Assembly: GCA_001778985.1 (NCBI GenBank)
Contig: MFIU01000002.1
Coordinates: 57,826-121,825, forward strand
Origin: Candidatus Giovannonibacteria bacterium RIFOXYD1_FULL_48_21
GTDB lineage: Bacteria > Patescibacteriota > Minisyncoccia > JACPKW01 > UBA11713
Direction: 5' to 3'
Length of the DNA: 64,000 nt
The position numbers and the translations under genes are program-made. The notes beneath the pieces are model-generated. The model was not told the DNA's origin and searched no databases. It saw only the letters and a program-made list of their open reading frames with translations. Positions 2,152 through 46,772 of this stretch are shown one piece after another. Every line of letters starts with the position of its first letter. The first letter of the stretch is position 1.

Positions 2152-3108
2152 ATGCTCGATTTTTTAGTTTTCATTGTTTCGTTTTTTATTTTGAGCTGGG
2201 CCGGAGGAAGTTTGGTGAAGTCCCTGACTTCGCTCGCGCGGCTCTTGAAAGTTTCCGAGTACTTGATGGCATTTTTTCTGGTAAGTTTCGCGACCTCGAT
2301 TCCGGAACTTTTCGTGGGCATCAGCTCGGCCTGGAAGGATATTCCGGCTTTTTCTCTGGGCAATGTTCTGGGCGCGAATATCATCAACGCGACCTTAATT
2401 TTAGGGCTGGTGGCGATTTTGGCGAACGGCATCAGCATCGAGCGGAAATTTTCCAGAAAAACTTTTCTGGCGGCTTTTGGCATGGGAATTCTGCCTTTAT
2501 TTTTCGCCTGGGACGGCGTTATCAGCCGTTTTGACGGCTTCCTGTCGCTCGCGGTATTTTTATTGTATCTGGTTTATATCTCCAGAGAGCGTGAATATTT
2601 TTCAGAAGTTTTTAATAACGCCTCCAGACTGCCCGCAGTTTTTATTAAAGATTTTTTTGCCGGCCTCGGCGCGTTCGTTTTGGCCCTGGCGGCTCTGCTT
2701 TTTAGCGCCTTCCTGCTGGTGAATACCGGCCAGAAAATAATCGGAATGTTTTCTATCTCGGCTTTCGTCTTCGGCGCTCTCTTGGTCGCGCTCGGCACCA
2801 CTTTGCCGGAGCTGATTTTCGGTCTCAAAGCCGTAAATCTGAAGCACGGCGCCATGGCTGTGGGAAATTCTTTGGGCTCAATCGTATTTAACGCTTCCTT
2901 TGTCGTAGGCGTTGTCAGCTTGATTCGGCCCATCGAAGTCGTCCGGGACGAAAATTTCATGCTCTCGGCCGCTTTCGTTTTCTTGGCTCTTCTCTTCTTT
3001 TCAGTTTTTACCTCCACCAAATCGCGCCTGGAGCGGGAGGAGGGAGTTTTTCTGGTGCTTCTATACCTGGTATTTTTCTTCAGCCAGTATTATCTTTTAA
3101 TCAAATGA
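2152..3108 (+). CDS. Ca2+/cation antiporter (CaCA family, YrbG-like)
   Basis: About 10 transmembrane helices. Two alpha-repeat motifs: GNVLGANIINATLILG and GNSLGSIVFNASFVVG. Confidence 0.75.
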   Translation: MLDFLVFIVSFFILSWAGGSLVKSLTSLARLLKVSEYLMAFFLVSFATSIPELFVGISSAWKDIPAFSLGNVLGANIINATLILGLVAILANGISIERKFSRKTFLAAFGMGILPLFFAWDGVISRFDGFLSLAVFLLYLVYISREREYFSEVFNNASRLPAVFIKDFFAGLGAFVLALAALLFSAFLLVNTGQKIIGMFSISAFVFGALLVALGTTLPELIFGLKAVNLKHGAMAVGNSLGSIVFNASFVVGVVSLIRPIEVVRDENFMLSAAFVFLALLFFSVFTSTKSRLEREEGVFLVLLYLVFFFSQYYLLIK

Positions 3109-4526: not shown

Positions 4527-4770
4527 CGTGGAAACGGTAGGGTCGCTAGGAAGCATTACGGGAGTTCGACTCTCTCGGCCGGTCCAAAAGTGAGGTCGGT
4601 TTGTGCAGGATAGGTGGGAGGCATTGAAGCGGAGGCGCTAGTTTCCAGGGAGCCAACCTTGAAATACCACCCTTGCCGATTGAACCCTCAGCCTCGGCCT
4701 TAAGCTCAAAACTGAGACTTGCGGATTCCATGCCTAACGCGGGGAGCGTCATCCGACCTCCCCGCGAAAT
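4527..4770 (+). ncRNA. 23S rRNA domain V-like fragment (H75-H79 / L1-stalk region), sense orientation, ending in a GC-rich hairpin
   Basis: Positions 4597-4672 read GGTCGGTTTGTGCAGGATAGGTGGGAGGCATTGAAG...GGAGCCAACCTTGAAATACCACCCTTG. They align at about 84% identity to E. coli 23S ~2105-2180 (GUGUAGGAUAGGUGGGAGGCUUUGAAG...GGAGCCGACCUUGAAAUACCACCCUU). The flanks show weaker H75/H79-like similarity. A hairpin GCGGGGAG..CTCCCCGC lies at 4739-4768. A possible TAGAAT -10 element is at 4512-4517. Confidence 0.5.
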
Positions 4771-7486: not shown

Positions 7487-8800
7487 TTATATCTTGATAA
7501 CCTGTGAACCTTCGGGCATATCTTGGACTTTGAAGCCAAGTTTCATAATTTCTTCCCTTATTCTATCAGCTTGACCCCATTTTTTCTCTCGGCGAAGGGC
7601 CTCTCTCTTTACAAGAAGCGCTTTGACTCGCGGCGGGACAGCTGATTTTTTTAAGTTTTTAAGCCCGAGACCCAAGACTTCGTCAGCACAGAGCAAATCT
7701 TCGTAGCTTTTAGCCTCTTTCCAAAGAAGGGCAAGGGCGCGCGGCATATTGAGGTCATCATTTAGCCGCGCTAAAAATTCTTTGCAGAAGGACCCGTCAG
7801 ATTTTTTCTTTCGCGCTTTGGCCTCCCGGGCGCGTTCCTGGAGTTTCAGGCGCGCTTGCCGTGCTCCTTCAAGCGCTTTCCAGGAAAACGAGAGGGGTGA
7901 ACGGTAGTGAGCGGTTAAGACGAGGTAGCGAAAGTCGAGCGGTTCGAATCCTTTTGTTTCCAGGTCCCGGAGGGTGAAAAGGTTGCCGAGGGATTTTGAC
8001 ATCTTTTTTTTCTCTATCAAAAGATGTTCTCCTTCGACAAAAAACCTCGCGAATTTTCTGCCGTAGGCGGCTTCGGACTGAGCGATTTCATTTTCATGAT
8101 GCGGAAAAATCAAATCAATTCCGCCGGCATGGATATCTATGGGCAGCCCAAGATATTTTATAGACATGGCCGAACATTCAATATGCCAGCCGGGGTGTCC
8201 GCCAACTGGAGGACTCTTTTTTTTCCATAACGCAAAATCTTCCGCCTGGTCTTTTGAATATTCGTCAACCGAGATTCTCGCGCCTGATTTTAACCCGCCT
8301 GCCGGACGGGCAGGTTCTTTTTGCTTGAGCCCGGAGAGTCGGCCGTATTTTTTAAACTTCGAGATATCGAAGTAGATTCCGTCCTCGGTTTCGTAAGCGT
8401 ATTTTTTCTTCAAAAGAAGGTTTATGATTTTTTTCATCTCCGAGATGTGTTCTGTGGCGCGAGGATATTTGAAGGCCGGCAAAATGTTAAGTCTTTTGAT
8501 ATCCCCAAAAAATCCTTTTTCGTAAAAACTCGTGAATTCTTTCAAACTTTTGCCGGCCTTTTTAGCTCCGCGGATGGTCTTATCGTCTATATCCGTGATA
8601 TTCATCACCAGTTTTACTTTATGGCCGTTTAATTCGAGCGTCCGACGCAAAATATCCTCAAAAATAAAAGTGCGCAGATTCCCGACATGAACGTAGTCGT
8701 AAACCGTTGGCCCGCAGGCGTAAAATTTAACCTCACCCTTGCGGGCGGGCCTGAAAATTTCTTTCTTTCTGGTGAAGGTGTTGAAAAGTCTCAATGACAT
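7487..8800 (-). CDS. cysS: Cysteine--tRNA ligase
   Basis: Class I HIGH motif (HVGN) and KMSKSLGN. Zinc-binding Cys residues. Confidence 0.9.
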   Translation of the reverse strand: MSLRLFNTFTRKKEIFRPARKGEVKFYACGPTVYDYVHVGNLRTFIFEDILRRTLELNGHKVKLVMNITDIDDKTIRGAKKAGKSLKEFTSFYEKGFFGDIKRLNILPAFKYPRATEHISEMKKIINLLLKKKYAYETEDGIYFDISKFKKYGRLSGLKQKEPARPAGGLKSGARISVDEYSKDQAEDFALWKKKSPPVGGHPGWHIECSAMSIKYLGLPIDIHAGGIDLIFPHHENEIAQSEAAYGRKFARFFVEGEHLLIEKKKMSKSLGNLFTLRDLETKGFEPLDFRYLVLTAHYRSPLSFSWKALEGARQARLKLQERAREAKARKKKSDGSFCKEFLARLNDDLNMPRALALLWKEAKSYEDLLCADEVLGLGLKNLKKSAVPPRVKALLVKREALRREKKWGQADRIREEIMKLGFKVQDMPEGSQVIKI

Positions 8801-8809
8801 TTAATCATT

Positions 8810-9664
8810 TTATGCTTGGGAGAAAATTTGAGCAACTACGATTGACGCCAGCACAATCAGGAAAGCAATAAATTTTTTATGGTTGAGTTTTTCTTTCAAG
8901 AGAAAGATCGCGGCAAAATACACCAAGAGCGGCTGGAGAGAGAAGAGCAGCATCGTATAGATGATGCCGGAACGCTGGTAGGAGAAGAAAAACAGAATCC
9001 AGGCCGCGGTGGTGAGGACATTTGTCAAAATTAAAAGGAGCACTGCCCGGTCCGGGATTTTTTGCATTTTCCCGGCGAAGAGGAAACCCATGATTGCCGC
9101 CAGGGCTCCGGAACGGAAAAGCTCCAGCGATATAGGGTGCCAGGCCGTAAGAAGCACCTTGGAGGCCGCCGCGCTTAGCGGAGCGATGGCGAGGGAAAAA
9201 ATTAAAAAAGGGCGAGTATCCTTTTTGATGAGAAAATGTCCTCCCTTCCAGTGGGACCAAATTATGGCAGTCGAGGCGGCCAGCGCCGGAATCAATACAA
9301 AAAAGTTCCGCTCATCAGTGAAAAAAATACCACTGAATATAACAACTGGAATCACGGACAAAAGCCCGATAGTTTCAAGTTCGTTGAGTTTATCTTGGTC
9401 CAGCGCCCGGTAAAATAAAATATTAGAGCCTACACTAAGTATTATCGACACGAGGAGCCACCAGAAAAGTCCGCCGTAGATGAGTTCGGAAGAGAAAGGC
9501 GGGCGAAAGATTAAAAAAATTATCAGAGTGATGAAAAAGACCAAAGGGAAACTCATCCCGGTGTAGGCCCTGAAATCAACCCGCCGGACCGAAAGAATGA
9601 CTTTATCCAGCGTAAAAGAAGCCGCCTGCAAAACCGCCGCGAGAATTGGCAAAAGGAAATTCAT
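8810..9664 (-). CDS. EamA/DMT-superfamily transporter (10 TM)
   Basis: Two tandem 5-TM EamA-like halves. The six-frame ORF extends to 9808 but overlaps the CorA-like gene. The internal Met start MNFLLPIL at 9664 is preferred. Confidence 0.5.
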   Translation of the reverse strand: MNFLLPILAAVLQAASFTLDKVILSVRRVDFRAYTGMSFPLVFFITLIIFLIFRPPFSSELIYGGLFWWLLVSIILSVGSNILFYRALDQDKLNELETIGLLSVIPVVIFSGIFFTDERNFFVLIPALAASTAIIWSHWKGGHFLIKKDTRPFLIFSLAIAPLSAAASKVLLTAWHPISLELFRSGALAAIMGFLFAGKMQKIPDRAVLLLILTNVLTTAAWILFFFSYQRSGIIYTMLLFSLQPLLVYFAAIFLLKEKLNHKKFIAFLIVLASIVVAQIFSQA

Positions 9665-9671
9665 AAGGAGA

Positions 9672-10586
9672 TTAAATCCAGCGCCGGTGCTTGAAGAAAA
9701 GGAGCATGGCGATGACGACCGCAGCCATAAGGCCGAGAATGACCCAGAAATCGTAACGGCTGCCCACGATGGGCCTGGCAACAGCGTCAATCGCGAAGAT
9801 GGAAGCAATCAAGGTGAGAGGGAAAGTGAGGAGAGCGAGCATGGTGAAGGCCTTGATGGTTTCGTTCGAGTGGCGAGATTGGAGGGCGTTATAAGTATCG
9901 TATAAGGCCTCCAGGGCGTCTTTGTCGTTTTCAGCCAAAGCCAGTAGCCGGCGGTAGTTTTGGGAAAGCTCTTTTACGTTTTTGGAAAACTCCGAACCGA
10001 AGATAGCGCGGGCAATGGGCGCGAATTCTTCGAGCAGGGTGCCGTGAGGCCGGAGTGCTCTTAGAAAATCTAAAATGTCCCGCCGCAAAAGCGAAATTTC
10101 TTCGATTAATTCTTTCTTCTCTTCCGAAAAAATCCGCTCCTCCACCCGGTCGATTTTTCTCTGGATATGGTCGAGTTCGGCGAGGAGATGGCGGTAGATT
10201 TCGTGCCAGAGCCGGTGGAGGAGTTTTTGAGCACTTTGGTCAAAAAGGTTCTGACGCAGATTCAAATTCAGTTCAGTTTTTCCAAAAAAATCCGCCAGGG
10301 GTTCAATCGGCTCGTAGTGGATTGTCAGAATAAATTTTCCGCCCACGGCCAAGTCCAGCTCCCGGGAGTGGTGATGCCCCCGGCGGTGGTCGTAGAGCGG
10401 CAGGTGGAATATAAGGTAAAGCTGTTCGCCCCAGCTTTCGGCTTTGGGGTGGAAGCTCGGACGGGCGAGTTCTTCGGAAACATGCTGGGGCAGGTTAAAT
10501 TCCTTGGTTAGCTTTGAAATTTCGTCCGGTGAAGGGCTTTGGACATCCACCCAGGCAATCCCGTTATAATCAATCCTTGAAAGCAT
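9672..10586 (-). CDS. CorA-like divalent cation transporter family protein
   Basis: Cytoplasmic alpha/beta domain plus two C-terminal TM helices. The GMN motif is not canonical (FAIDAV). Confidence 0.5.
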   Translation of the reverse strand: MLSRIDYNGIAWVDVQSPSPDEISKLTKEFNLPQHVSEELARPSFHPKAESWGEQLYLIFHLPLYDHRRGHHHSRELDLAVGGKFILTIHYEPIEPLADFFGKTELNLNLRQNLFDQSAQKLLHRLWHEIYRHLLAELDHIQRKIDRVEERIFSEEKKELIEEISLLRRDILDFLRALRPHGTLLEEFAPIARAIFGSEFSKNVKELSQNYRRLLALAENDKDALEALYDTYNALQSRHSNETIKAFTMLALLTFPLTLIASIFAIDAVARPIVGSRYDFWVILGLMAAVVIAMLLFFKHRRWI

Positions 10587-10622
10587 GCTCCTTTAATTTT
10601 AATATAGAAGGACCGCACTGTC

Positions 10623-11846
10623 ATGGAAATATCAGGAAAGAAAAAAGTTTTTTTTATTATTGCCGCGTTTTTGGCCATCGGCGCGGCTTTTGCCGGCGGC
10701 GCTTTTTTTGGATATAGCCAGCGGCCCGAAGTCGAAAAAATCCTGGGGATTTTGAATAAAGAGGAGCCGGCGGTCGGCCAGACGGTGGATTTTTCGCCTT
10801 TCTGGAAAGCCTGGCGGCTGGTGGAAGAGAAATATGCCGCGCCCGAGGAGATTCGCCGCCAGGAGATGGTTTGGGGCGCGATCCAAGGCTTGTTAAAGTC
10901 GCTGGACGACCCCTACACCGTCTTTTTTCCGCCGGAGGAGAAAAAACTTTTTGAATCCGAGGTGCGGGGCAACTTCGAGGGCGTTGGGATGGAAATCGCG
11001 GTTAAGAAGGGGATTTTGACCGTGGTCGCGCCCCTGAAAGGCACGCCGGCTTTTCGGGCCGGGATTAAAGCCGGAGACAAAATTTTAAAAATCGGCGATG
11101 AAGAAACCACGGACCTCAATGTCGAGGAAGCTGTTAAGCTTATCCGCGGCCCCAAGGGGACGACCGTTCGGCTGACCGTTCTCTCGGAGGGCGAAGATAA
11201 ATCCAAAGAGCTGGAAGTGGTTCGGGATACGATTCAGGTTCCGGTTTTGGAGACCGAAAAAATCGGGACGGATGTTTTCACGATAAAACTGCATAATTTT
11301 TCAGAGCGCTCGCCCTTTGAATTTCAGCAAGCTTTGAGAACTTTTGTTTTTTCCGGCGCGGACAAGCTGATAATCGATTTGCGCAACAACCCCGGCGGCT
11401 TTCTGGAAGCCTCGGTGGATATCGCTTCCTGGTTTTTAAAGACCGGGGAAGTTGTGCTTCGGGAAAGGTTTAGGGACGGCGAAGAGAGTCTGCACCGTTC
11501 CCGCGGCTACAATACTTTTCCAGAACTGCCGCTAGTGGTTTTGGTCAACGAAGGCTCGGCCTCGGCTTCGGAGATTTTGGCCGGAGCGCTACAGGACCAC
11601 GGAATCGCGAAAATAGTCGGCGCCCAGAGTTTCGGCAAGGGCTCGGTCCAGGAATTGCTCGAGGTCACGGACGAAACCTCGCTTAAAATCACCATCGCCC
11701 GCTGGCTCACTCCGAACGGGAGAGACATCACCAAAACCGGCATTACTCCGAACTTTGAGGTTAAATACACAGAAGAGGACGCCCAGCAAGGCCGCGATCC
11801 CCAGCTGGACAAGGCTTTAGAAGTTCTTAGAAATTGGCCCAAATAA
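10623..11846 (+). CDS. ctpA: C-terminal processing peptidase (S41, CtpA-like) with PDZ domain
   Basis: PDZ segment GIKAGDKILKIGDEET. S41 catalytic region LVVLVNEGSASASEILAGALQDHG. N-terminal TM or signal. Confidence 0.8.
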   Translation: MEISGKKKVFFIIAAFLAIGAAFAGGAFFGYSQRPEVEKILGILNKEEPAVGQTVDFSPFWKAWRLVEEKYAAPEEIRRQEMVWGAIQGLLKSLDDPYTVFFPPEEKKLFESEVRGNFEGVGMEIAVKKGILTVVAPLKGTPAFRAGIKAGDKILKIGDEETTDLNVEEAVKLIRGPKGTTVRLTVLSEGEDKSKELEVVRDTIQVPVLETEKIGTDVFTIKLHNFSERSPFEFQQALRTFVFSGADKLIIDLRNNPGGFLEASVDIASWFLKTGEVVLRERFRDGEESLHRSRGYNTFPELPLVVLVNEGSASASEILAGALQDHGIAKIVGAQSFGKGSVQELLEVTDETSLKITIARWLTPNGRDITKTGITPNFEVKYTEEDAQQGRDPQLDKALEVLRNWPK

Positions 11847-12986: not shown

Positions 12987-13508
12987 CTACTGCACTGCAC
13001 GGTGTATCCACTTCCATTCTTTGCCGTTACTTTTCAGTGGTTTCATGGATTCATGGATTTTTATAAGTTTTTCAATGTCCGCCGGAGACCAGCGGTTTGA
13101 AATAAAACCCCTTTTACCTCCCTGTATATTTATCTCTTTTCTTTTATTCCTACCTATAATTTGCAAGGCGTCTTTCCAAAGAAGAAAATCTTTCGACTTT
13201 TTACCAAAAAGTTGATGTTTCTCGAAGAAGGGCACGATAATTTTCTGTAAATTATCTATGCCAGCTACCGAGTACCTAGCTACCTGTTTATTCTTTGCAA
13301 AAGTTATCTTCCCACACCCCAAAGTGTCTTTTATAAGTTTCAATAAGTCCACATCATCACTCCGGAGGCTTATGACAAATTCTGCACTCCAGCGGAAATA
13401 TTCAGGCCGATTTTTTCTTTTTTTCTTGACTTCACGCTGAAATTTTAAAGCAAAACATCCCTCCCCATCCACAAAACCCGCTATATAATCACCGGGGAGT
13501 TCGCCCAC
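12987..13508 (-). CDS. LAGLIDADG homing endonuclease (single-motif, free-standing)
   Basis: YIAGFVDGEGCF is a LAGLIDADG motif. 173 aa. It sits in an AT-rich stretch with no room for a group I intron core around it. Confidence 0.8.
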   Translation of the reverse strand: MGELPGDYIAGFVDGEGCFALKFQREVKKKRKNRPEYFRWSAEFVISLRSDDVDLLKLIKDTLGCGKITFAKNKQVARYSVAGIDNLQKIIVPFFEKHQLFGKKSKDFLLWKDALQIIGRNKRKEINIQGGKRGFISNRWSPADIEKLIKIHESMKPLKSNGKEWKWIHRAVQ

Positions 13509-33200: not shown

Positions 33201-33279
33201 CTTTCTATTTTAAAACGAAATGTGGAAAACTGCATTTGACGGCGCTTGAAACCGGGCTTATCTTTAAAAAACAGTCCTT

Positions 33280-33495
33280 GAACAGCTAGATGCAGTTTGT
33301 AGATTACTAACGTAGGTTGGGGAAGCAGGTGTAAATCCTGCGCAGTGCCGCTACGGTGATTCGTTCTTCGAACGATAAGTCCGATGGCCAACCCTGCATT
33401 GTTTATCTTTTATCACCCTCGAGCAAGGGAAAGCCGTATTTTTAGCGTTTATCCATCTTCAAAACCCGCTCGAGGCGGGAATTTTTATTTTTTAA
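33280..33495 (+). promoter_or_regulatory. Cobalamin (AdoCbl) riboswitch with intrinsic terminator expression platform
   Basis: Core GGGAAGCAGGUGUAAAUCCUGCGCAGUGCCGCUACGGUGA matches the Cbl riboswitch consensus GGGAAgccGGUGaaAaUCCggCaCgGuCCCGCCACUGUaa. B12-box-like AAGUCCGAUGGCC (E. coli btuB has AAGCCCGAAGACC). Terminator CCCGCTCGAGGCGGG + AATTTTTATTTTTT at 33465-33493, just upstream of the 33509 start. Confidence 0.65.
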
Positions 33496-33508
33496 TAGTT
33501 TTAATAGC

Positions 33509-35092
33509 GTGAATAACATAAATAAAAAATTACTCCGGCTGTTTGTTCTTTTGTCGCTCGGCGCGCTGGCGTTCCTGCAGCTGAATTTAGCCCGGGGAGA
33601 CGTTAATTCCGCCTTGGTTTACCTCAAAACCAAAAGTCCGAATCCGTGGATAACTATGGCGCTGGTAGCCGCCGGAGAGAGTCCGGATGTTGATTATCTG
33701 AAATCGACTACCGGCGCCAGCGCCACCGATTACGAAGCCCCTATTTTGGCCTTGGCCGCAGCCGGAAAGAATGCACGGACATTTCCTGACACGGATTTGG
33801 TCGCGGCACTCAAGGCTTTTCACGCCGGAGGGCAAATCGGTAGCGCCTCAACTTTGAATGATGATATCTTCGGGGTTCTTGCTCTCCTTGCCTCTGGAGA
33901 ACCGGCGAGCGACTCGGCCGTAACGGATGCAAAAAACACCATCCTCAACAACCAGAATGCTAACGGCGGCTGGCCGTTTGCGGTAGGCGGCAATCCTGAC
34001 ACCAACATGACTGCGATGGCCATAATGGCCTTGATTTCGGCCGGAGTAGACAAAACTGATTCGCATATAGTAAACGCGGTTAATTACCTAAAATCGGCCC
34101 AGAATGACGACGGCGGGTTTCCTTATGATCCGGTAAGCCCGTGGGGAACAAACTCGGACGCGTCTTCGGATGCCTGGATTATCTCGGCGATAAGTAGCGT
34201 TGGTGAGGACCCGGATGGTTCAAGTTGGAGCAAAAACGGCAATAGCCCGGTTGACCATCTAATGTCTTTACAGGCCGATGGCGGATACTTTGAGTACCAA
34301 GAAGGCACGGGAGAGGATTCCTTTAGTCCAGTAACCACTTCTTACGCGGTAATTGCTTTAACGGGAAAGTATTATCCAGTGGGAGCAACTTCTTTTCCTG
34401 CAGTCCCGAATGTAGACTATAAAATCGAAGGAAGCACCGGGACGATTTGTGAAGGGAGCGTGAATGCTCCGAACGCGCTCAATTTAGTTGTGATTATCGC
34501 CCCAACTTGCGGCTTCACTTACGAGATAGTGGATACTTCTTTCGGGCCTTATCTGAAGAGAATAAACGACGATGAGGCGCACGACTTAGTCGGCTGGCTT
34601 TACGCGGTTAATTTCGTTCTGCCGAACATCGGTGCGGCCGACTATGACCTGGAAAACGGCGACTACGTTATCTGGCACTTCGGCAACTTTAACTGGCAGC
34701 CGGGCGGGGCCGAACTTAATTTGAGCGCCAATGTTCTCCCGGGAACGGGAGACGGAGGAGGAGGAGACGGCGGCTCCATATCTTTTACCGTTAACGTTTT
34801 GGGAGGAGGAAACAATTTGGGCTTTGGAGACATTGTTCCGGGAGCCCTGAAGTCGCAGGATATAGTGATTGTCAATAACGGTAATGGTTCTATCTACATA
34901 GAAAGCGCCGTAAGCGGAAATGAAGTATTCAGGGACTTCTTAAACATTGACGGGATTTCCTGGAGAAATTTCAGCCTTAACTTATCCGAGGGTGAAAGCG
35001 ACGAATCCGAAGTCAATCTGCAAGTGCCTTCTTCTTACTCCAAACCCGGTTCTAAAACTGGCAAGCTTATATTCTGGGCAACGGCAAACTAA
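33509..35092 (+). CDS. Secreted transcobalamin/intrinsic-factor-like protein: alpha/alpha-toroid repeats + DUF4430 (TC-like beta) domain + C-terminal beta-sandwich
   Basis: Signal peptide. Three QxxxGG(W/F/Y) toroid repeats (NQNANGGWPF, AQNDDGGFPY, LQADGGYFEY). DUF4430-like segment GWLYAVNFV...GAADYDLENGDYVIWHF. Gly-rich linker. Ig-like tail. Confidence 0.55.
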   Translation: MNNINKKLLRLFVLLSLGALAFLQLNLARGDVNSALVYLKTKSPNPWITMALVAAGESPDVDYLKSTTGASATDYEAPILALAAAGKNARTFPDTDLVAALKAFHAGGQIGSASTLNDDIFGVLALLASGEPASDSAVTDAKNTILNNQNANGGWPFAVGGNPDTNMTAMAIMALISAGVDKTDSHIVNAVNYLKSAQNDDGGFPYDPVSPWGTNSDASSDAWIISAISSVGEDPDGSSWSKNGNSPVDHLMSLQADGGYFEYQEGTGEDSFSPVTTSYAVIALTGKYYPVGATSFPAVPNVDYKIEGSTGTICEGSVNAPNALNLVVIIAPTCGFTYEIVDTSFGPYLKRINDDEAHDLVGWLYAVNFVLPNIGAADYDLENGDYVIWHFGNFNWQPGGAELNLSANVLPGTGDGGGGDGGSISFTVNVLGGGNNLGFGDIVPGALKSQDIVIVNNGNGSIYIESAVSGNEVFRDFLNIDGISWRNFSLNLSEGESDESEVNLQVPSSYSKPGSKTGKLIFWATAN

Positions 35093-35634
35093 TGAAGAAA
35101 CTGGGACTTATAACATTTTTAGGAATAATACTCGTCGCTTCCGCTCCGGCAGTGCCGGAGGCGGGGGCGGTGGGGCTTTCCGTTTATCCTAAGGAACTTC
35201 GAGTTTCGGCGATGGTGGGCGAGACAGCCAATTATAAGCTAAATGTTAAAAATCCTTCGGGAGAAGTTTCGCTTTTTGAGGTTTACCCGGATGACTTGGG
35301 AGCGATTGTAAAGGTTTCGCCGTCTAGTTTTATTCTGGAATCCGAAGAATCAAGAGAGGTGAGCGTGCGGGTTACGGCTCGCGGTGAGGGAGTGTTTAAA
35401 ACCAATATCTCGGTTGTCGCTACGCCGGTTGCCTCTGCGTCATTCAATGCCGGGAGCGGAGTGAAAATCCCCGTGGAGATTTCTGTCGGTCTGCCGAACT
35501 CGTGGCTCGCATCAATCATTGCCAGTTTGCCGCTTTCTACAACTAGTAGAACTTTAGGAGTGATTCTTTTGGGACTGATACTCATAGCCGGTTTTTTCGT
35601 AATAAGATATGGCGTCAAGCAAATTAAAATTTAG
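35092..35634 (+). CDS. Surface beta-sandwich (Ig-like) protein with C-terminal TM anchor
   Basis: Signal peptide, beta-rich domain, C-terminal hydrophobic helix followed by basic residues. Confidence 0.4.
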   Translation: MKKLGLITFLGIILVASAPAVPEAGAVGLSVYPKELRVSAMVGETANYKLNVKNPSGEVSLFEVYPDDLGAIVKVSPSSFILESEESREVSVRVTARGEGVFKTNISVVATPVASASFNAGSGVKIPVEISVGLPNSWLASIIASLPLSTTSRTLGVILLGLILIAGFFVIRYGVKQIKI

Positions 35635-36046
35635 TCTGATAGCGGTTGGTGTTTTGGCTCTGGCTCTCGCGGGCTTATCGTTTTTTGTAGACGGGCCGCA
35701 AGTCACTCAAGCGCCAGTACAAAGCGAACAAACCGTATCGCAAGCGTCTTTCGAAATAGATTTTGGCGACGGGAGGACAGAAGCGATTGAGATTGAAGTT
35801 GATGGAACAAAAAATCTATTCCAAGTTATGAAAGAGGTTTTGACCGAACAGGAAATTGAGTTCTCCTATGAAAGTTACTCCGGCTTGGGAGAGTTAATAA
35901 CTAAAATTGGGGACAAGAAGAACGGAGAGGGCGGCAATTACTGGCAGTTTTGGATAAACGGCAATTATTCCATGGTCGGCGCCTCTTCGTATATAGTAAA
36001 ACCCGCTGATATAATTGAATGGAAATTTACAGATGAACAGCAATAA
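35609..36046 (+). CDS. DUF4430 (transcobalamin-like beta domain) protein, membrane- or secretion-targeted
   Basis: GGNYWQFWINGNYSMVGASSYIVKPADIIEWKF matches the DUF4430 signature. N-terminal TM or signal. Confidence 0.6.
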   Translation: MASSKLKFSLIAVGVLALALAGLSFFVDGPQVTQAPVQSEQTVSQASFEIDFGDGRTEAIEIEVDGTKNLFQVMKEVLTEQEIEFSYESYSGLGELITKIGDKKNGEGGNYWQFWINGNYSMVGASSYIVKPADIIEWKFTDEQQ

Positions 36047-36581
36047 AGATAAATTTATTTTAGTTTTGATAGTTATTATTGCGGCGGTAAGTGTCATACT
36101 GCGCTTGCTGCCGCATATGCCGAACTTCGCGCCCATCGGCGCCTTGGCACTATTTGCTGGGCTGTACTCTACGCGTAAGTTGTGGTTTCTCATTCCTCTC
36201 GCGGTGATGTTCATAAGCGATATTTTCATAGGTTTTTATGACTGGCAGATTATGTCTGCTGTCTACTTGAGTTTTTTGGCTTATGCGGTGATTGGCAGAG
36301 TCGTCAAAAATAACAAGTCTGTTTTTACGGTCGCGGGCGGAACATTCGCCGGAGCGTTACTTTTTTATGTTACAACCAACTTCGCCGTTTGGGCTTTTTC
36401 GGGAATGTATCCTCATACACTCCAAGGGTTAATCTTATGCTACGAAATGGCGCTGCCATTCTTTAGAAATACTTTATTAGGGGACTTATTCTATGTGGGA
36501 GCGTTCGTTGGCGCTTACGAATTGGCTTATAAACTTTTAGCTTCACAAATGCGCTTAGCCTTGAAGGCTCAAATTAATTAA
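36015..36581 (+). CDS. Six-TM small membrane protein, putative ECF-S-component-like / BtuM-CbrT-like transporter
   Basis: About 185 aa and 6 predicted TM helices. Last gene of the riboswitch-led cluster. The ATG at 36033 is a possible true start. Confidence 0.35.
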   Translation: MNGNLQMNSNKDKFILVLIVIIAAVSVILRLLPHMPNFAPIGALALFAGLYSTRKLWFLIPLAVMFISDIFIGFYDWQIMSAVYLSFLAYAVIGRVVKNNKSVFTVAGGTFAGALLFYVTTNFAVWAFSGMYPHTLQGLILCYEMALPFFRNTLLGDLFYVGAFVGAYELAYKLLASQMRLALKAQIN

Positions 36582-36602: not shown

Positions 36603-37349
36603 ATGGAAAAAATACAAAAAGCTATATTTTGTTGGAGTGGAGGGAAAGACTCTTCGTATTGCTTGTACAAAGTTTTAACGGAAAAATTATTCGATGTGAA
36701 GTATCTGCTTACTACCATCAATGGTAAATTTAAAAGAATTTCAATGCACGGAGTGAGGGAAGAATTATTAGATAATCAAGCCGAATCAATCGGCATTCCG
36801 CTCTTGAAAGTAAGAGTAACCGAAGGCACAAATGACGAGTACGAAAAACAAATGGAAACAGTTTTGCTAAAAGTAAAATCGGAAGGAATCAACAATGTAA
36901 TCTTTGGTGATATCTTTTTGGAAGGTTTAAGAATATACCGTGAAAATAATTTAGCAAAGGTGGGAATGAAAGGAATTTTTCCAATATGGAAAGTAAGCAC
37001 AACAAATCTCTTAAATGATTTTATCAACCGACAATTCAACGCTGTGATATGTTGCGCCAATGACGGATATCTTGGAGAAGAATGGATAGGAAGGGAAATA
37101 GACAAATCATTTATAGAACAATTACCTGCTACTGTCGATCCTTGCGGAGAAAACGGAGAGTACCACACGTTTTGTTATGATGGACCTCTGTTCAAAAAGA
37201 AAATCAGTTTTACGGTGGGTGAAAAAGTTTATAGAGCACTGGAAATAAAAACAGACGATGTTTGCACTCTGCCATTAAATGTGACAACAAAGGGATTTTG
37301 GTTTTGCGATTTATTATCTAAACCGACCAGTGGACGAGGGAGGATTTGA
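36603..37349 (+). CDS. PP-loop ATP pyrophosphatase, Dph6/MJ0570 (DUF71) family
   Basis: CWSGGKDS PP-loop and the GENGEYHTF motif typical of the diphthine-ammonia ligase-like family. Confidence 0.7.
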   Translation: MEKIQKAIFCWSGGKDSSYCLYKVLTEKLFDVKYLLTTINGKFKRISMHGVREELLDNQAESIGIPLLKVRVTEGTNDEYEKQMETVLLKVKSEGINNVIFGDIFLEGLRIYRENNLAKVGMKGIFPIWKVSTTNLLNDFINRQFNAVICCANDGYLGEEWIGREIDKSFIEQLPATVDPCGENGEYHTFCYDGPLFKKKISFTVGEKVYRALEIKTDDVCTLPLNVTTKGFWFCDLLSKPTSGRGRI

Positions 37350-37405
37350 ACCTCCGACCCCGTCATTATCAGTGACGTGCTCTAACCAGGCTGAGCTACT
37401 CGTCC
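37331..37405 (-). tRNA. tRNA-Ile (anticodon GAT)
   Basis: Reverse complement is GGACGAGTAGCTCAGCCTGGTTAGAGCACGTCACTGATAATGACGGGGTCGGAGGTTCAAATCCTCCCTCGTCCA. Anticodon loop CTGATAA. Lies 3' of the 16S, as in rrn spacers. Confidence 0.7.
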
Positions 37406-37830: not shown

Positions 37831-37883
37831 CTCGGCCAACACCTTAATCAATCAAGTTTCGACCTAGACTTATAGTCTTAAAT

Positions 37884-39375
<1,492 letters not shown>

Positions 39376-39551
39376 GAATTTGAACGGGACAAAAGAGAAA
39401 ATTTCTTTTGTTTATTGTGTGTTCTAGATTTTTAATGTTCTGGCAAAATAAACCCGCGATGAGCTTCGCCTAAAAACCCATCGCGGATTTACTTCTTAAT
39501 TTTCAAGTTGTTTAAGCTGTCGTATACCTCATATTAATCCGCCCTACCTAC

Positions 39552-40413: not shown

Positions 40414-41145
40414 ACAAAACTGGCAAACATTCAATGTTCGCCATAATCTAATAAATACCCTTTTTCTAATTTTTCTTTGATGGGAGTATCCTCCACAAAA
40501 TTTCTATATTCATACCCATTTTCAAACTGCTCAAGTATAATCGGATTGCTCAAAAGTTGACCCCACCTATTTTCTTTAACAAAATCCTGAAAACTAGACC
40601 ACGGATATTCAATCTCTTTCCCTCTCCATTTCGCAAGTTCCCGTGGATTAAGGTGAATATAGGCCGAAAGATAATTTAGATATTCATTTTTATCTATGTG
40701 AATTGATTGAAATCGTCCGCCAAACAAATGACCGCTACGGCCATGACGCAAATTAAAGTACTTGGTATAAGCATCGGCCAGGCGCTGCATAAATTTCGAA
40801 ATACCGCCTTCTTGCGTTTCTTTCAAAATAAAGTGGAAATGATTGAGCATGAGGCAGAAGCAAATTAACTCAATTTTCCTATCTTTCAAAGTATCTTGAA
40901 AAAAATCAATGTCAAACCTTCGATGTTTGGCAAAAGGGACTAGACGAGAAATATGAGAATGAAATACGTCACCTTGAAACGCCATAAGCAAAGTTATAAA
41001 GCGCCATCTGTCTGCATCATCAATAAAGATTAAGCGTTTCTCAACACCGCGGTTATAAACGTGATAATATTCTCCTTCTCCTATGCGCCGGCTCATATGT
41101 TTATATTAATACACAACTGGCAAACATTGAATGTTTGCCAGTTTA
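40414..41145. mobile_element. IS200/IS605-family-like element 1 (HuH-Y1 transposase flanked by subterminal palindromes)
   Basis: Near-palindrome GGCAAACATTCAATGTTCGCC at 40423-40443 and perfect palindrome GGCAAACATTGAATGTTTGCC at 41119-41139. Both are preceded by AACTGG and sit in the same orientation. Confidence 0.6.
40431..41096 (-). CDS. tnpA: IS200-like HuH tyrosine (Y1) transposase / RAYT-like protein
   Basis: HuH motif LMLNHFHFIL. Tyr in SAYIHLNPRE. N-terminal GEYYHVYNRG. Paralog at 46059..46715. Confidence 0.65.
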   Translation of the reverse strand: MSRRIGEGEYYHVYNRGVEKRLIFIDDADRWRFITLLMAFQGDVFHSHISRLVPFAKHRRFDIDFFQDTLKDRKIELICFCLMLNHFHFILKETQEGGISKFMQRLADAYTKYFNLRHGRSGHLFGGRFQSIHIDKNEYLNYLSAYIHLNPRELAKWRGKEIEYPWSSFQDFVKENRWGQLLSNPIILEQFENGYEYRNFVEDTPIKEKLEKGYLLDYGEH

Positions 41146-46039: not shown

Positions 46040-46772
46040 TTACGAAAATGTTGAACATTCAATGTTCAACAGCTAAGGCTCCTTCGAGCTTTTTTAAAGG
46101 CGTTTTCACGACGAATTCACGATATTCGTTGCCAGTATCGAATTGCCCAAGAATAATTTCTGGATTTAAAAAATTGCCCCATCTGTTTTCGTCAATATAA
46201 TCTCGGAAACTTGACCATGAATAGTTCACTTCATTGTCCCGCCATTTTTTCAATTCTCTTGGGTTAGCGTGGAGGTAAGCTGAAAGATGTCTAAGATAAT
46301 TATTGGTATCAATATGCCTCCGGTGAAATCTTCCGCCAAATAGATGCCCGCTCCGATCATAACGGGTGTTAAAATATTTAGTATAAGAATTGGCCAGACG
46401 TTGCATATATTTTGAAATACCTCCCTCTTTTACCTCTTGGGCAATCAAATGAAAGTGATTCGGCATTAAGCAAAAAGCTATAAGTCTAACATGTCGGTTT
46501 TTTAGAATCTCGCCAAACACCTCGTCATTAAATTTTTGATTCTGAACTAGTTTGACTATCCGCTTCATTGGGTTCAATATCTCCTCGCCCTGAAAACCGA
46601 TAAGCAAAGTCATAAATCGCCAACGGTCTCTGTCATCAAGAAATAGGGAGCGTTTTTCAACTCCCCGATTATAGATGTGGTAATATTCACCGACCCCAAG
46701 CCCACTCCATTTCATATAAATCCATTGTAGCGCCAAAATGTTGAACATTCAATGTTCAAATGTTCAACAAGT
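46040..46772. mobile_element. IS200/IS605-family-like element 2
   Basis: Perfect palindrome TGTTGAACATTCAATGTTCAACA at 46048-46070. A related copy at 46738-46770 flanks the transposase gene. Confidence 0.6.
46059..46715 (-). CDS. tnpA: IS200-like HuH Y1 transposase paralog
   Basis: CLMPNHFHLIA HuH motif. SAYLHANPRE Tyr motif. About 55% identical to 40431..41096. Start trimmed to the Met at MKWSGLG. Confidence 0.65.
   Translation of the reverse strand: MKWSGLGVGEYYHIYNRGVEKRSLFLDDRDRWRFMTLLIGFQGEEILNPMKRIVKLVQNQKFNDEVFGEILKNRHVRLIAFCLMPNHFHLIAQEVKEGGISKYMQRLANSYTKYFNTRYDRSGHLFGGRFHRRHIDTNNYLRHLSAYLHANPRELKKWRDNEVNYSWSSFRDYIDENRWGNFLNPEIILGQFDTGNEYREFVVKTPLKKLEGALAVEH

Follow-up and report, generated by a model that had tools for sequence, protein, structure and literature searches.

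What is controlled by the cobalamin riboswitch that precedes an operon of four genes in Candidatus Giovannonibacteria bacterium RIFOXYD1_FULL_48_21? The stretch analyzed here, 64,000 nucleotides (nt) of contig MFIU01000002.1 and called the window below, carries on its plus strand a leader RNA and four genes, g1 to g4, whose ends overlap or abut in a tightly packed operon. A model that had read only the letters of this DNA proposed a riboswitch-driven module for extracellular capture and import of vitamin B12 (the original prediction). Our evidence, all of it computational, consists of the riboswitch, a terminator/antiterminator alternative, predicted folds, domain order and genomic associations. 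It makes it likely that g1-g4 form an operon for scavenging and import of corrinoids (B12), repressed by adenosylcobalamin (AdoCbl), in a monoderm, B12-auxotrophic cell of the Patescibacteria. The features of the system are as follows.

33236-33264, plus strand: possible sigma-70-like promoter (TTGACG-17 nt-TATCTT), about 30 nt 5′ of the riboswitch; consensus scan.
33295-33439, plus strand: AdoCbl-type cobalamin riboswitch aptamer, including the P13 hairpin CCCTCGAGCAAGGG at 33416-33429; Rfam and our own covariance models.
33465-33495, plus strand: intrinsic terminator, CCCGCTCGAGGCGGG (33465-33479) followed by a T-run, serving as expression platform; terminator scan.
33509-35092, plus strand: g1, secreted transcobalamin-like protein of 527 amino acids (aa) with a GTG start; signal segment 8-26, α/α toroid about 30-295, DUF4430 β domain about 298-400, low-confidence linker, immunoglobulin (Ig)-like β-sandwich about 426-527; Pfam, AlphaFold2, Foldseek.
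35092-35634, plus strand: g2, signal peptide, Ig-like (ASH/PapD-like) domain and C-terminal membrane anchor; weak Pfam matches, hydropathy.
35609-36046, plus strand: g3, N-terminal membrane anchor and stand-alone DUF4430 (transcobalamin β-like) domain; Pfam PF14478, E 1.1e-13.
36033-36581, plus strand: g4, DUF6580 membrane protein with the fold of an energy-coupling factor (ECF) transporter S-component, candidate corrinoid translocator; Pfam, AlphaFold2, Foldseek.

The riboswitch core GGGAAGCAGGTGTAAATCCTGCGCAGTGCCGCTACGGTGA and the B12-box-like AAGTCCGATGGCC named in the original prediction are present at 33321-33360 and 33378-33390, respectively. Rfam cmscan placed a match to the AdoCbl family RF01482 (clan CL00101) at 33295-33436 on the plus strand, with 57.3 bits compared to a gathering score of 50 and an E-value of 6.8e-8 for the whole window. 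Model positions 1-149 were covered in full, and the match was the sole riboswitch found in the window. A model of the cobalamin clan thus scored above its gathering score, as had been anticipated, but the best family was RF01482 and not RF00174; both belong to CL00101, and overlapping matches of lower score within one clan were suppressed. Two covariance models of our own, R1 built from the window aptamer and its relatives at loci L001, L002 and L004 and R2 built subsequently from 22 sequences, gave the window aptamer 152 and 98.7 bits, respectively; the E-values of these models are rough. In three further lineages the Rfam model likewise detected the aptamer directly 5′ of a g1 homologue (L001, 51.2 bits; L002, 45 bits; L004, 28.8 bits).

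The fold of the whole leader (33290-33515) had an uninformative z-score of -0.19, and structural support was therefore taken from covariation. The RNAalifold structure of the 22-sequence aptamer alignment contained 24 pairs, 19 of which showed compensatory changes, and 89.5% of the alignment cells were paired, compared to 68% in shuffled alignments. The covariation score was 0.603 versus 0.200 after shuffling, with none of 500 shuffles reaching as high a value, and control registers slid by 1-3 columns scored between 0.07 and 0.22. The riboswitch is not a chance match: dozens of other genomes have this RNA at the equivalent place, and its covariation is strong.

The hairpin and U-tract terminator predicted in front of the first gene was found at 33465-33495, where a 6-bp GC-rich hairpin is followed by AATTTTTATTTTTT and ends 14 nt before the GTG start codon of g1 at 33509. 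An antiterminator can arise when the center of the terminator, GCTCGAGG, pairs instead with CCTCGAGC of P13: CCUCGAGC, comprising the 5′ side and loop of P13, and GCUCGAGG in the terminator center form a mutually exclusive helix of 8 bp. Folding of the region 33405-33500 gave -18.4 kcal/mol for the antiterminator conformer versus -15.2 kcal/mol for the conformer with P13 and terminator. A GC-rich hairpin with a T-run was present at the same position in all nine related loci inspected. From these two computed structures we infer that the switch acts on transcription and turns it OFF: AdoCbl would stabilize P13 and thereby release the terminator. The candidate promoter at 33236-33264 agrees with the consensus at 9 of 12 positions and is a weak one, the number of such sites not being above that in shuffled sequence.

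The protein encoded by g1 has the features that had been read from its sequence, as Pfam and motif searches recovered the N-terminal hydrophobic signal segment, three Q..GG[WFY] repeats (residues 149, 198, and 255) and a DUF4430 domain. The Pfam matches were SQHop_cyclase_C/N, Prenyltrans and DUF4430 (residues 344-392, E 1.8e-7), and two cysteines of the DUF4430 β domain, Cys314 and Cys334, are invariant. An AlphaFold2 model from 40 homologues was of high confidence (mean predicted local distance difference test score, pLDDT, 87.1). When it was compared with the PDB by Foldseek, the top 15 matches were all transcobalamin, intrinsic factor or haptocorrin, with E-values from 1.6e-13 to 4.7e-11, in agreement with the transcobalamin-like α/β arrangement that the original prediction had called for. 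Each of these alignments spans 412-444 columns, and therefore both the toroid and the β domain of g1 are needed for them; g1 is transcobalamin-like because of the combination and order of its domains and not because of the toroid alone. The closed geometry with which the carriers sandwich B12 was not reproduced in the g1 model. In common with mammalian transcobalamin, intrinsic factor and haptocorrin, g1 has an N-terminal α6/α6 toroid followed by a C-terminal DUF4430 (SLBB) β domain in one chain. In contrast to these carriers, to which its identity is about 16-20%, it has an additional C-terminal Ig-like domain, and its operon also encodes a membrane-anchored partner, g2, and a second, stand-alone β domain, g3. 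The nearest named relatives of g1, as of g4, are found in Jorgensenbacteria, Colwellbacteria and Giovannonibacteria, in keeping with a patescibacterial host of the Parcubacteria type.

Terpene cyclases and prenyltransferases also occur among the Foldseek matches of g1, ranking below the B12 carriers. That g1 is an enzyme of this superfamily and its link to a riboswitch incidental is hardly credible. A motif search found neither a D.DD (DxDD) nor a DD..D (DDxxD) catalytic motif in g1. The protein carries a signal peptide, its single toroid is fused to DUF4430 and the Ig-like domain, its whole-protein structural matches are led by B12 carriers, and a riboswitch lies 5′ of the g1 homologues in every locus examined. 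The missing catalytic motif, the secretion of g1 and its fusion to DUF4430 were the grounds for rejecting an assignment as a terpene cyclase.

The second gene, which is part of the operon and had been left undescribed in the original prediction, overlaps the g1 stop codon by 1 nt. A g2 homologue follows 3′ of every full-length g1-type gene examined and is a constant partner of g1; at locus L094 only a shorter open reading frame (ORF) was called at the g2 position. A paralogous relationship between the C-terminal domain of g1 and g2 was considered and rejected, as BLASTP gave no significant similarity (E 0.65). The third gene was confirmed by Pfam as a stand-alone DUF4430 protein, and hydropathy analysis placed its transmembrane segment at residues 9-27.

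The fourth gene had been described as encoding a six-helix membrane protein of roughly 185 aa. It encodes 182 aa from the ATG at 36033, as also called in public assemblies, with the longest ORF starting from a TTG at 36015, and its AlphaFold2 model (pLDDT 91.2) shows six helices in the ECF S-component fold. The protein matched PF20221 (DUF6580) with E 2.7e-49 and 168 bits, compared to a cut-off of 27; this was its only Pfam match, PF12822 and PF07155 not being hit. The family comprises 6316 clusters at 50% identity (E ≤ 1e-3). The top Foldseek match of g4 in the PDB was 8ovv, BtuM with hydroxocobalamin (E 2.6e-3, template modeling score 0.56/0.59, 21% identity), and further matches were ECF S-components, including 4huq_S, FolT, RibU and ThiT. 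In a search of all PDB sequences with the DUF6580 profile, only CbrT (6fnp_A, E 2.1e-4) and 4hzu_S (E 0.94) were matched at E ≤ 10, and BtuM was not. The two nearest solved relatives of g4, BtuM by structure and CbrT by profile, are both specific for B12. Of the earlier description as a BtuM/CbrT-like membrane protein, the S-component fold and the best matches stood, whereas by sequence g4 belongs to a separate family, DUF6580; assignments of g4 as BtuM or CbrT proper were rejected by the sequence tests. Invariant residues of DUF6580 include R30, P33, H34, N37, D69 and W126, and His134 is nearly invariant. In the representative of one cluster, P0391, DUF6580 is naturally fused to a seventh transmembrane helix and then DUF4430, which corresponds to g4 joined in the correct topology to a protein like g3.

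A profile scan over one genome per species yielded 80 DUF6580 loci, those nearest to g4, in which genes were called simply as longest ORFs; several counts refer to 79 of them. These loci come mostly from Patescibacteria, and also from Ignavibacteria, Melioribacteraceae, Bacteroidales, Balneolales, Verrucomicrobia and one member of the Nanoarchaeia. Model R2 gave 53 riboswitch matches across the 80 loci at E < 0.1, on its rough scale, all on the strand of the DUF6580 gene. A same-strand cobalamin riboswitch was present in 51 of the 80 loci, upstream of DUF6580 in 49 and downstream in 2. Rfam itself detected RF00174 5′ of DUF6580 at six loci (L074, 105 bits; L083, 102 bits; L061, 85 bits; L064 and L072, 49 bits each; L078, 36 bits) and RF01689 (AdoCbl-II) at the archaeal locus L043; these matches come from Ignavibacteria, Melioribacteraceae, Verrucomicrobia and the one Nanoarchaeia locus. 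A transcobalamin-like α or β neighbor was found in 54 of 79 loci. The genes near DUF6580 also included, in 22 loci, class II ribonucleotide reductase (NrdJ, with the ribonucleotide reductase barrel and a TSCPD domain, often following NrdR) and, in 20 loci, a corrinoid adenosyltransferase of the CobA/BtuR or PduO type. At least one B12 feature was present in 70 of 79 loci. As the 80 loci are those nearest to g4, the association with B12 is perhaps weaker across the whole family.

The synteny on which the original prediction depended recurs widely among the DUF6580 loci, in four layouts. In layout A (window, L002, L011, L047 and L080), the riboswitch is followed by g1, g2, the β-domain gene and DUF6580; in layout B it is followed by a β gene (about 200 aa), an α gene (600-1000 aa) and DUF6580. 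Layout C consists of NrdR, NrdJ, adenosyltransferase, riboswitch, β gene and DUF6580, and layout D, found in Gram-negative phyla, of riboswitch, TonB-dependent receptor, one further gene and DUF6580. Close relatives keep g1-g4 together as a cassette although their flanking genes differ. The pair of a β-domain gene and DUF6580 is the conserved core: the β-domain gene is the immediate upstream neighbor of DUF6580 in 28 of 79 loci.

This core bears on the possibility that g1-g3 serve to bind up or store B12 outside the cell, either to compete for it or to keep a reservoir, while g4 has an unrelated membrane role. The additional Ig-like domain of g1 and its dedicated anchor partner are compatible with such a function, and the Bacteroides surface B12 binders BtuG and BtuJ1 are described as reservoirs and competitors (PMC13616437). 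Nevertheless, we regard it as decidedly improbable, since the minimal conserved unit pairs the β domain with DUF6580, the two are fused in P0391, and DUF6580 is linked to riboswitches even where no toroid protein is present.

In an alternative with the same components, g4 is an ordinary group-II ECF S-component docking on EcfAA′T encoded elsewhere in the genome, so that the system would be a transporter of the ECF-CbrT type with transcobalamin-like accessory binders. The profile matches to CbrT and to the S-component 4hzu_S speak for it, as do the few DUF6580 members that also touch PF12822, the family matched by a CbrT fragment, or PF07155. An AxxxA motif in helix 1 is linked to ECF docking. 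This motif was present in only 5 of 31 DUF6580 members. Moreover, no ECF-type ATPase or T component was found by motif search in the 64-kb window, nor did one adjoin DUF6580 in any of the approximately 80 loci, and the top structural match of g4 is a solitary transporter. Also in favor of an ECF partner, the transcobalamin-like genes of Firmicutes share operons with CbiO/CbiQ-type genes (PMC1796856; 10.1101/864751). Against it, DUF6580 of Gram-negative loci is found behind a TonB-dependent receptor, and it was from such a context that BtuM had been predicted (PMC6072759). On balance, an ECF module supplied from elsewhere is a serious alternative that we nonetheless judge unlikely.

Several observations weigh against B12 import as the function of the operon. 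Pfam gave no match of g1 to the eukaryotic Cobalamin_bind family at E ≤ 0.01. The resemblance of g4 to BtuM (E 2.6e-3) and CbrT (E 2.1e-4) is weak, and the cysteine that serves BtuM as cobalt ligand has no counterpart in g4, because DUF6580 lacks a conserved cysteine: no column of the family alignment contains 50% Cys or more, and the one Cys that g4 contains is not conserved. A B12 context is absent from nine of 79 DUF6580 loci, most of them from Bacteroidales, and the 64-kb window itself holds no B12-dependent enzyme or adenosyltransferase. Finally, a homologous operon of Lactobacillus sakei, lsa1836-1840, which combines ECF genes with split α-like and β-like proteins, has been tied to haem uptake (10.1101/864751).

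This last point supports a reading in which the system imports haem, cobinamide or a similar compound (a different tetrapyrrole or a precursor of corrinoids) in place of a complete cobamide. Cobinamide is in fact also bound by CbrT and BtuM (PMC5997447, PMC6072759). On the other side stand the control by a riboswitch of the AdoCbl class and the arrangement in relatives, where NrdR-NrdJ and a corrinoid adenosyltransferase are immediate neighbors of these genes. Genes for nucleotide-loop assembly were not seen among the annotated neighbors, although no systematic search for them was made. We consider a haem or precursor substrate rather improbable and retain B12 itself as the likely cargo.

Some of the compared loci showed further cobalamin riboswitches. 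Locus L080 carries two in tandem, at 1601-1749 and 2967-3090, the first 5′ of a 332-aa toroid-only protein and the second 5′ of the g1-type gene. At the patescibacterial loci L046 (7143-7265) and L073 (6993-7100), a second cobalamin riboswitch lies 3′ of DUF6580 and the adenosyltransferase and heads three genes, encoding proteins of about 361-375 aa, about 145-154 aa and, in L046, a 792-aa coupling ATPase similar to TraG/VirD4/TrwB. The third gene of L073, a 793-aa ORF, was matched to this ATPase by size only; such a gene is an unexpected cargo of a B12 riboswitch. At L013, a protein of 768 aa with methyltransferase, B12-binding and radical S-adenosylmethionine domains is encoded at 8485-10791, two genes 3′ of the DUF6580/DUF4430 pair, and is a possible additional B12 consumer in Parcubacteria.

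Taken as a B12 import system, the operon may work as follows. When cytoplasmic AdoCbl is scarce, the leader RNA would adopt the antiterminator form and g1-g4 would be transcribed. The secreted g1 protein would capture extracellular corrinoid, probably while tethered to the cell surface by the membrane-anchored Ig-like protein g2, and would hand it to g3, the membrane-tethered β domain. According to fragment studies on intrinsic factor and transcobalamin, their β domain can bind cobalamin by itself, which would make a relay through g3 plausible. The DUF6580 protein g4, with its S-component fold, would then take the corrinoid from g3 across the membrane. In the cytoplasm it would be adenosylated and used chiefly by the class II ribonucleotide reductase NrdJ, and AdoCbl that accumulates would bind the aptamer, stabilize P13, free the terminator and switch the operon off. 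In this scheme, ligand binding, the order of hand-over, what g2 does and ECF-independent transport are the parts that we infer.

Bacterial surface proteins in which a signal peptide and toroid are joined to a transcobalamin-like β domain of the SLBB type and to Ig domains were predicted as B12 scavengers by Burroughs, Balaji, Iyer and Aravind in 2007 (PMC1796856). The operons described there contain a second β paralogue and CbiO/CbiQ ECF-type genes in hosts lacking B12 synthesis, and riboswitch control is not mentioned. In L. sakei, the split α-like and β-like proteins Lsa1839/Lsa1840 are encoded in an operon with ECF genes and were assigned to haem (10.1101/864751). With these systems the operon studied here shares a signal-peptide toroid and β domain, fused or paired, Ig-fold additions, a paralogous second β protein, a host without B12 synthesis and predicted scavenging. 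The difference is that theirs include a CbiO/CbiQ-type ECF module and a PF12822-type S-component, whereas here the membrane protein is DUF6580 and no ECF genes are nearby.

Among the solved transporters, ECF-CbrT of Lactobacillus delbrueckii has a six-helix S-component that binds cobalamin and cobinamide (PDB 6FNP; PMC5997447). CbrT belongs to PF12822 and needs EcfAA′T, whereas g4 belongs only to DUF6580, near which no such genes were found. BtuM of Thiobacillus denitrificans is a small, solitary, S-component-like B12 transporter that works without an ECF module and has an essential ligand, Cys80 (PDB 8OVV; PMC6072759). It had been predicted from its position beside btuB, and DUF6580 is placed likewise in Verrucomicrobia and Ignavibacteria. 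The two differ in that there is no similarity at the level of hidden Markov models, and in place of Cys80, DUF6580 has the invariant His34 and the nearly invariant His134; BtuM is also mainly proteobacterial and lacks transcobalamin-like partners. The BtuJ/BtuH/BtuG-BtuB relay of Bacteroides (PMC13616437) resembles the proposed system in its riboswitch-controlled surface capture and in passing the cobamide inward to a membrane transporter. It differs in using unrelated folds (β-jellyroll DUF4465 and a seven-bladed propeller), an outer membrane and a TonB-dependent receptor, and in ending in BtuFCD.

The original prediction had spoken of a novel B12-scavenging system. The B12-uptake reading is well supported computationally, but the word novel was too broad: as bacterial transcobalamin-like scavengers were predicted in 2007 (PMC1796856), the system is of a kind already known and not categorically new. 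What appears to be new is the anchoring of transcobalamin-like proteins by a riboswitch, DUF6580 as their membrane partner, the association of DUF6580 with riboswitch, NrdJ and adenosyltransferase in several phyla, the lack of ECF genes beside it, and the DUF6580-DUF4430 fusion. In open-access papers and preprints we found no mention of DUF6580, no paper combining Patescibacteria with a cobalamin riboswitch, and none describing B12 import in Patescibacteria; judged by titles and abstracts, bacterial B12 is not a subject of any of the eight papers there that mention DUF4430.

The gene that starts 21 nt after g4 was considered as a further member of the system and rejected, because it is absent from the closest relatives of the operon and its nearest homologues occur in unrelated contexts.

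36603-37349, plus strand: g5, Dph6-like PP-loop ATP pyrophosphatase (PF01902/TIGR00290).

These homologues show 80-88% identity, several being labeled Bacteroidota. With g5 missing from close relatives, their unrelated contexts suggest from sequence comparison that g5 was horizontally acquired. It is 48% identical to the gene located between the TonB receptor and DUF6580 behind RF00174 in Verrucomicrobia (L064, L072 and L078). An assembly chimera is not the explanation, because contigs that were assembled independently for several samples share this g4-g5 junction.

Elsewhere in the window, 88 nt on the plus strand (4594-4681), 94 nt 3′ of rplU (L21), form an isolated and nearly consensus copy of the L1-stalk region of 23S rRNA. 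It corresponds to positions 2127-2214 of the large-subunit rRNA model (57.8 and 51.7 bits), is the only 23S sequence in the window and may serve in regulation as a mimic that binds L1, or may be a stray piece of rRNA. The 16S rRNA gene is complete (1386 bits) and is located on the minus strand at 37883-39376, with a tRNA at 37331-37405. As no 23S or 5S gene adjoins the 16S gene in the window, the rRNA genes appear to be unlinked. The minus strand also carries two paralogous IS200-like Y1 transposase genes (PF01797) about 5 kb apart, at 40431-41096 and 46059-46748, and, at 12987-13508, a LAGLIDADG homing-endonuclease gene that stands free, outside any rRNA gene or obvious intron.

A large part of bacterial diversity belongs to the Patescibacteria, also known as the candidate phyla radiation (CPR), whose genomes are tiny and which obtain cofactors from other organisms. 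The comparison of about 80 genomes suggests, as far as gene content and order can indicate, that operons of this type may be the B12 import route of many CPR bacteria. Many of the related loci encode the B12-dependent class II ribonucleotide reductase, and the locus offers a concrete hypothesis for import of the cofactor. More tentatively, and with slightly more doubt than conviction, we propose that DUF6580 is the third family of corrinoid transporters with S-component fold after CbrT and BtuM, independent of ECF modules and fed by a membrane-tethered β-domain binding protein; that it would provide Patescibacteria and some DPANN archaea with their main entry route for B12 and would offer Verrucomicrobia and Ignavibacteria an alternative to BtuFCD at the inner membrane; and that g1 would be the bacterial counterpart of animal transcobalamin and intrinsic factor. 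A function is thereby suggested for a large uncharacterized family of about 6,300 clusters, and the prediction of bacterial transcobalamin-like B12 scavenging made in 2007, which is relevant to how the animal B12 carriers originated in evolution, gains its first riboswitch-anchored case. If transport without an ECF module is true, DUF6580 would join the few known solitary S-component transporters.

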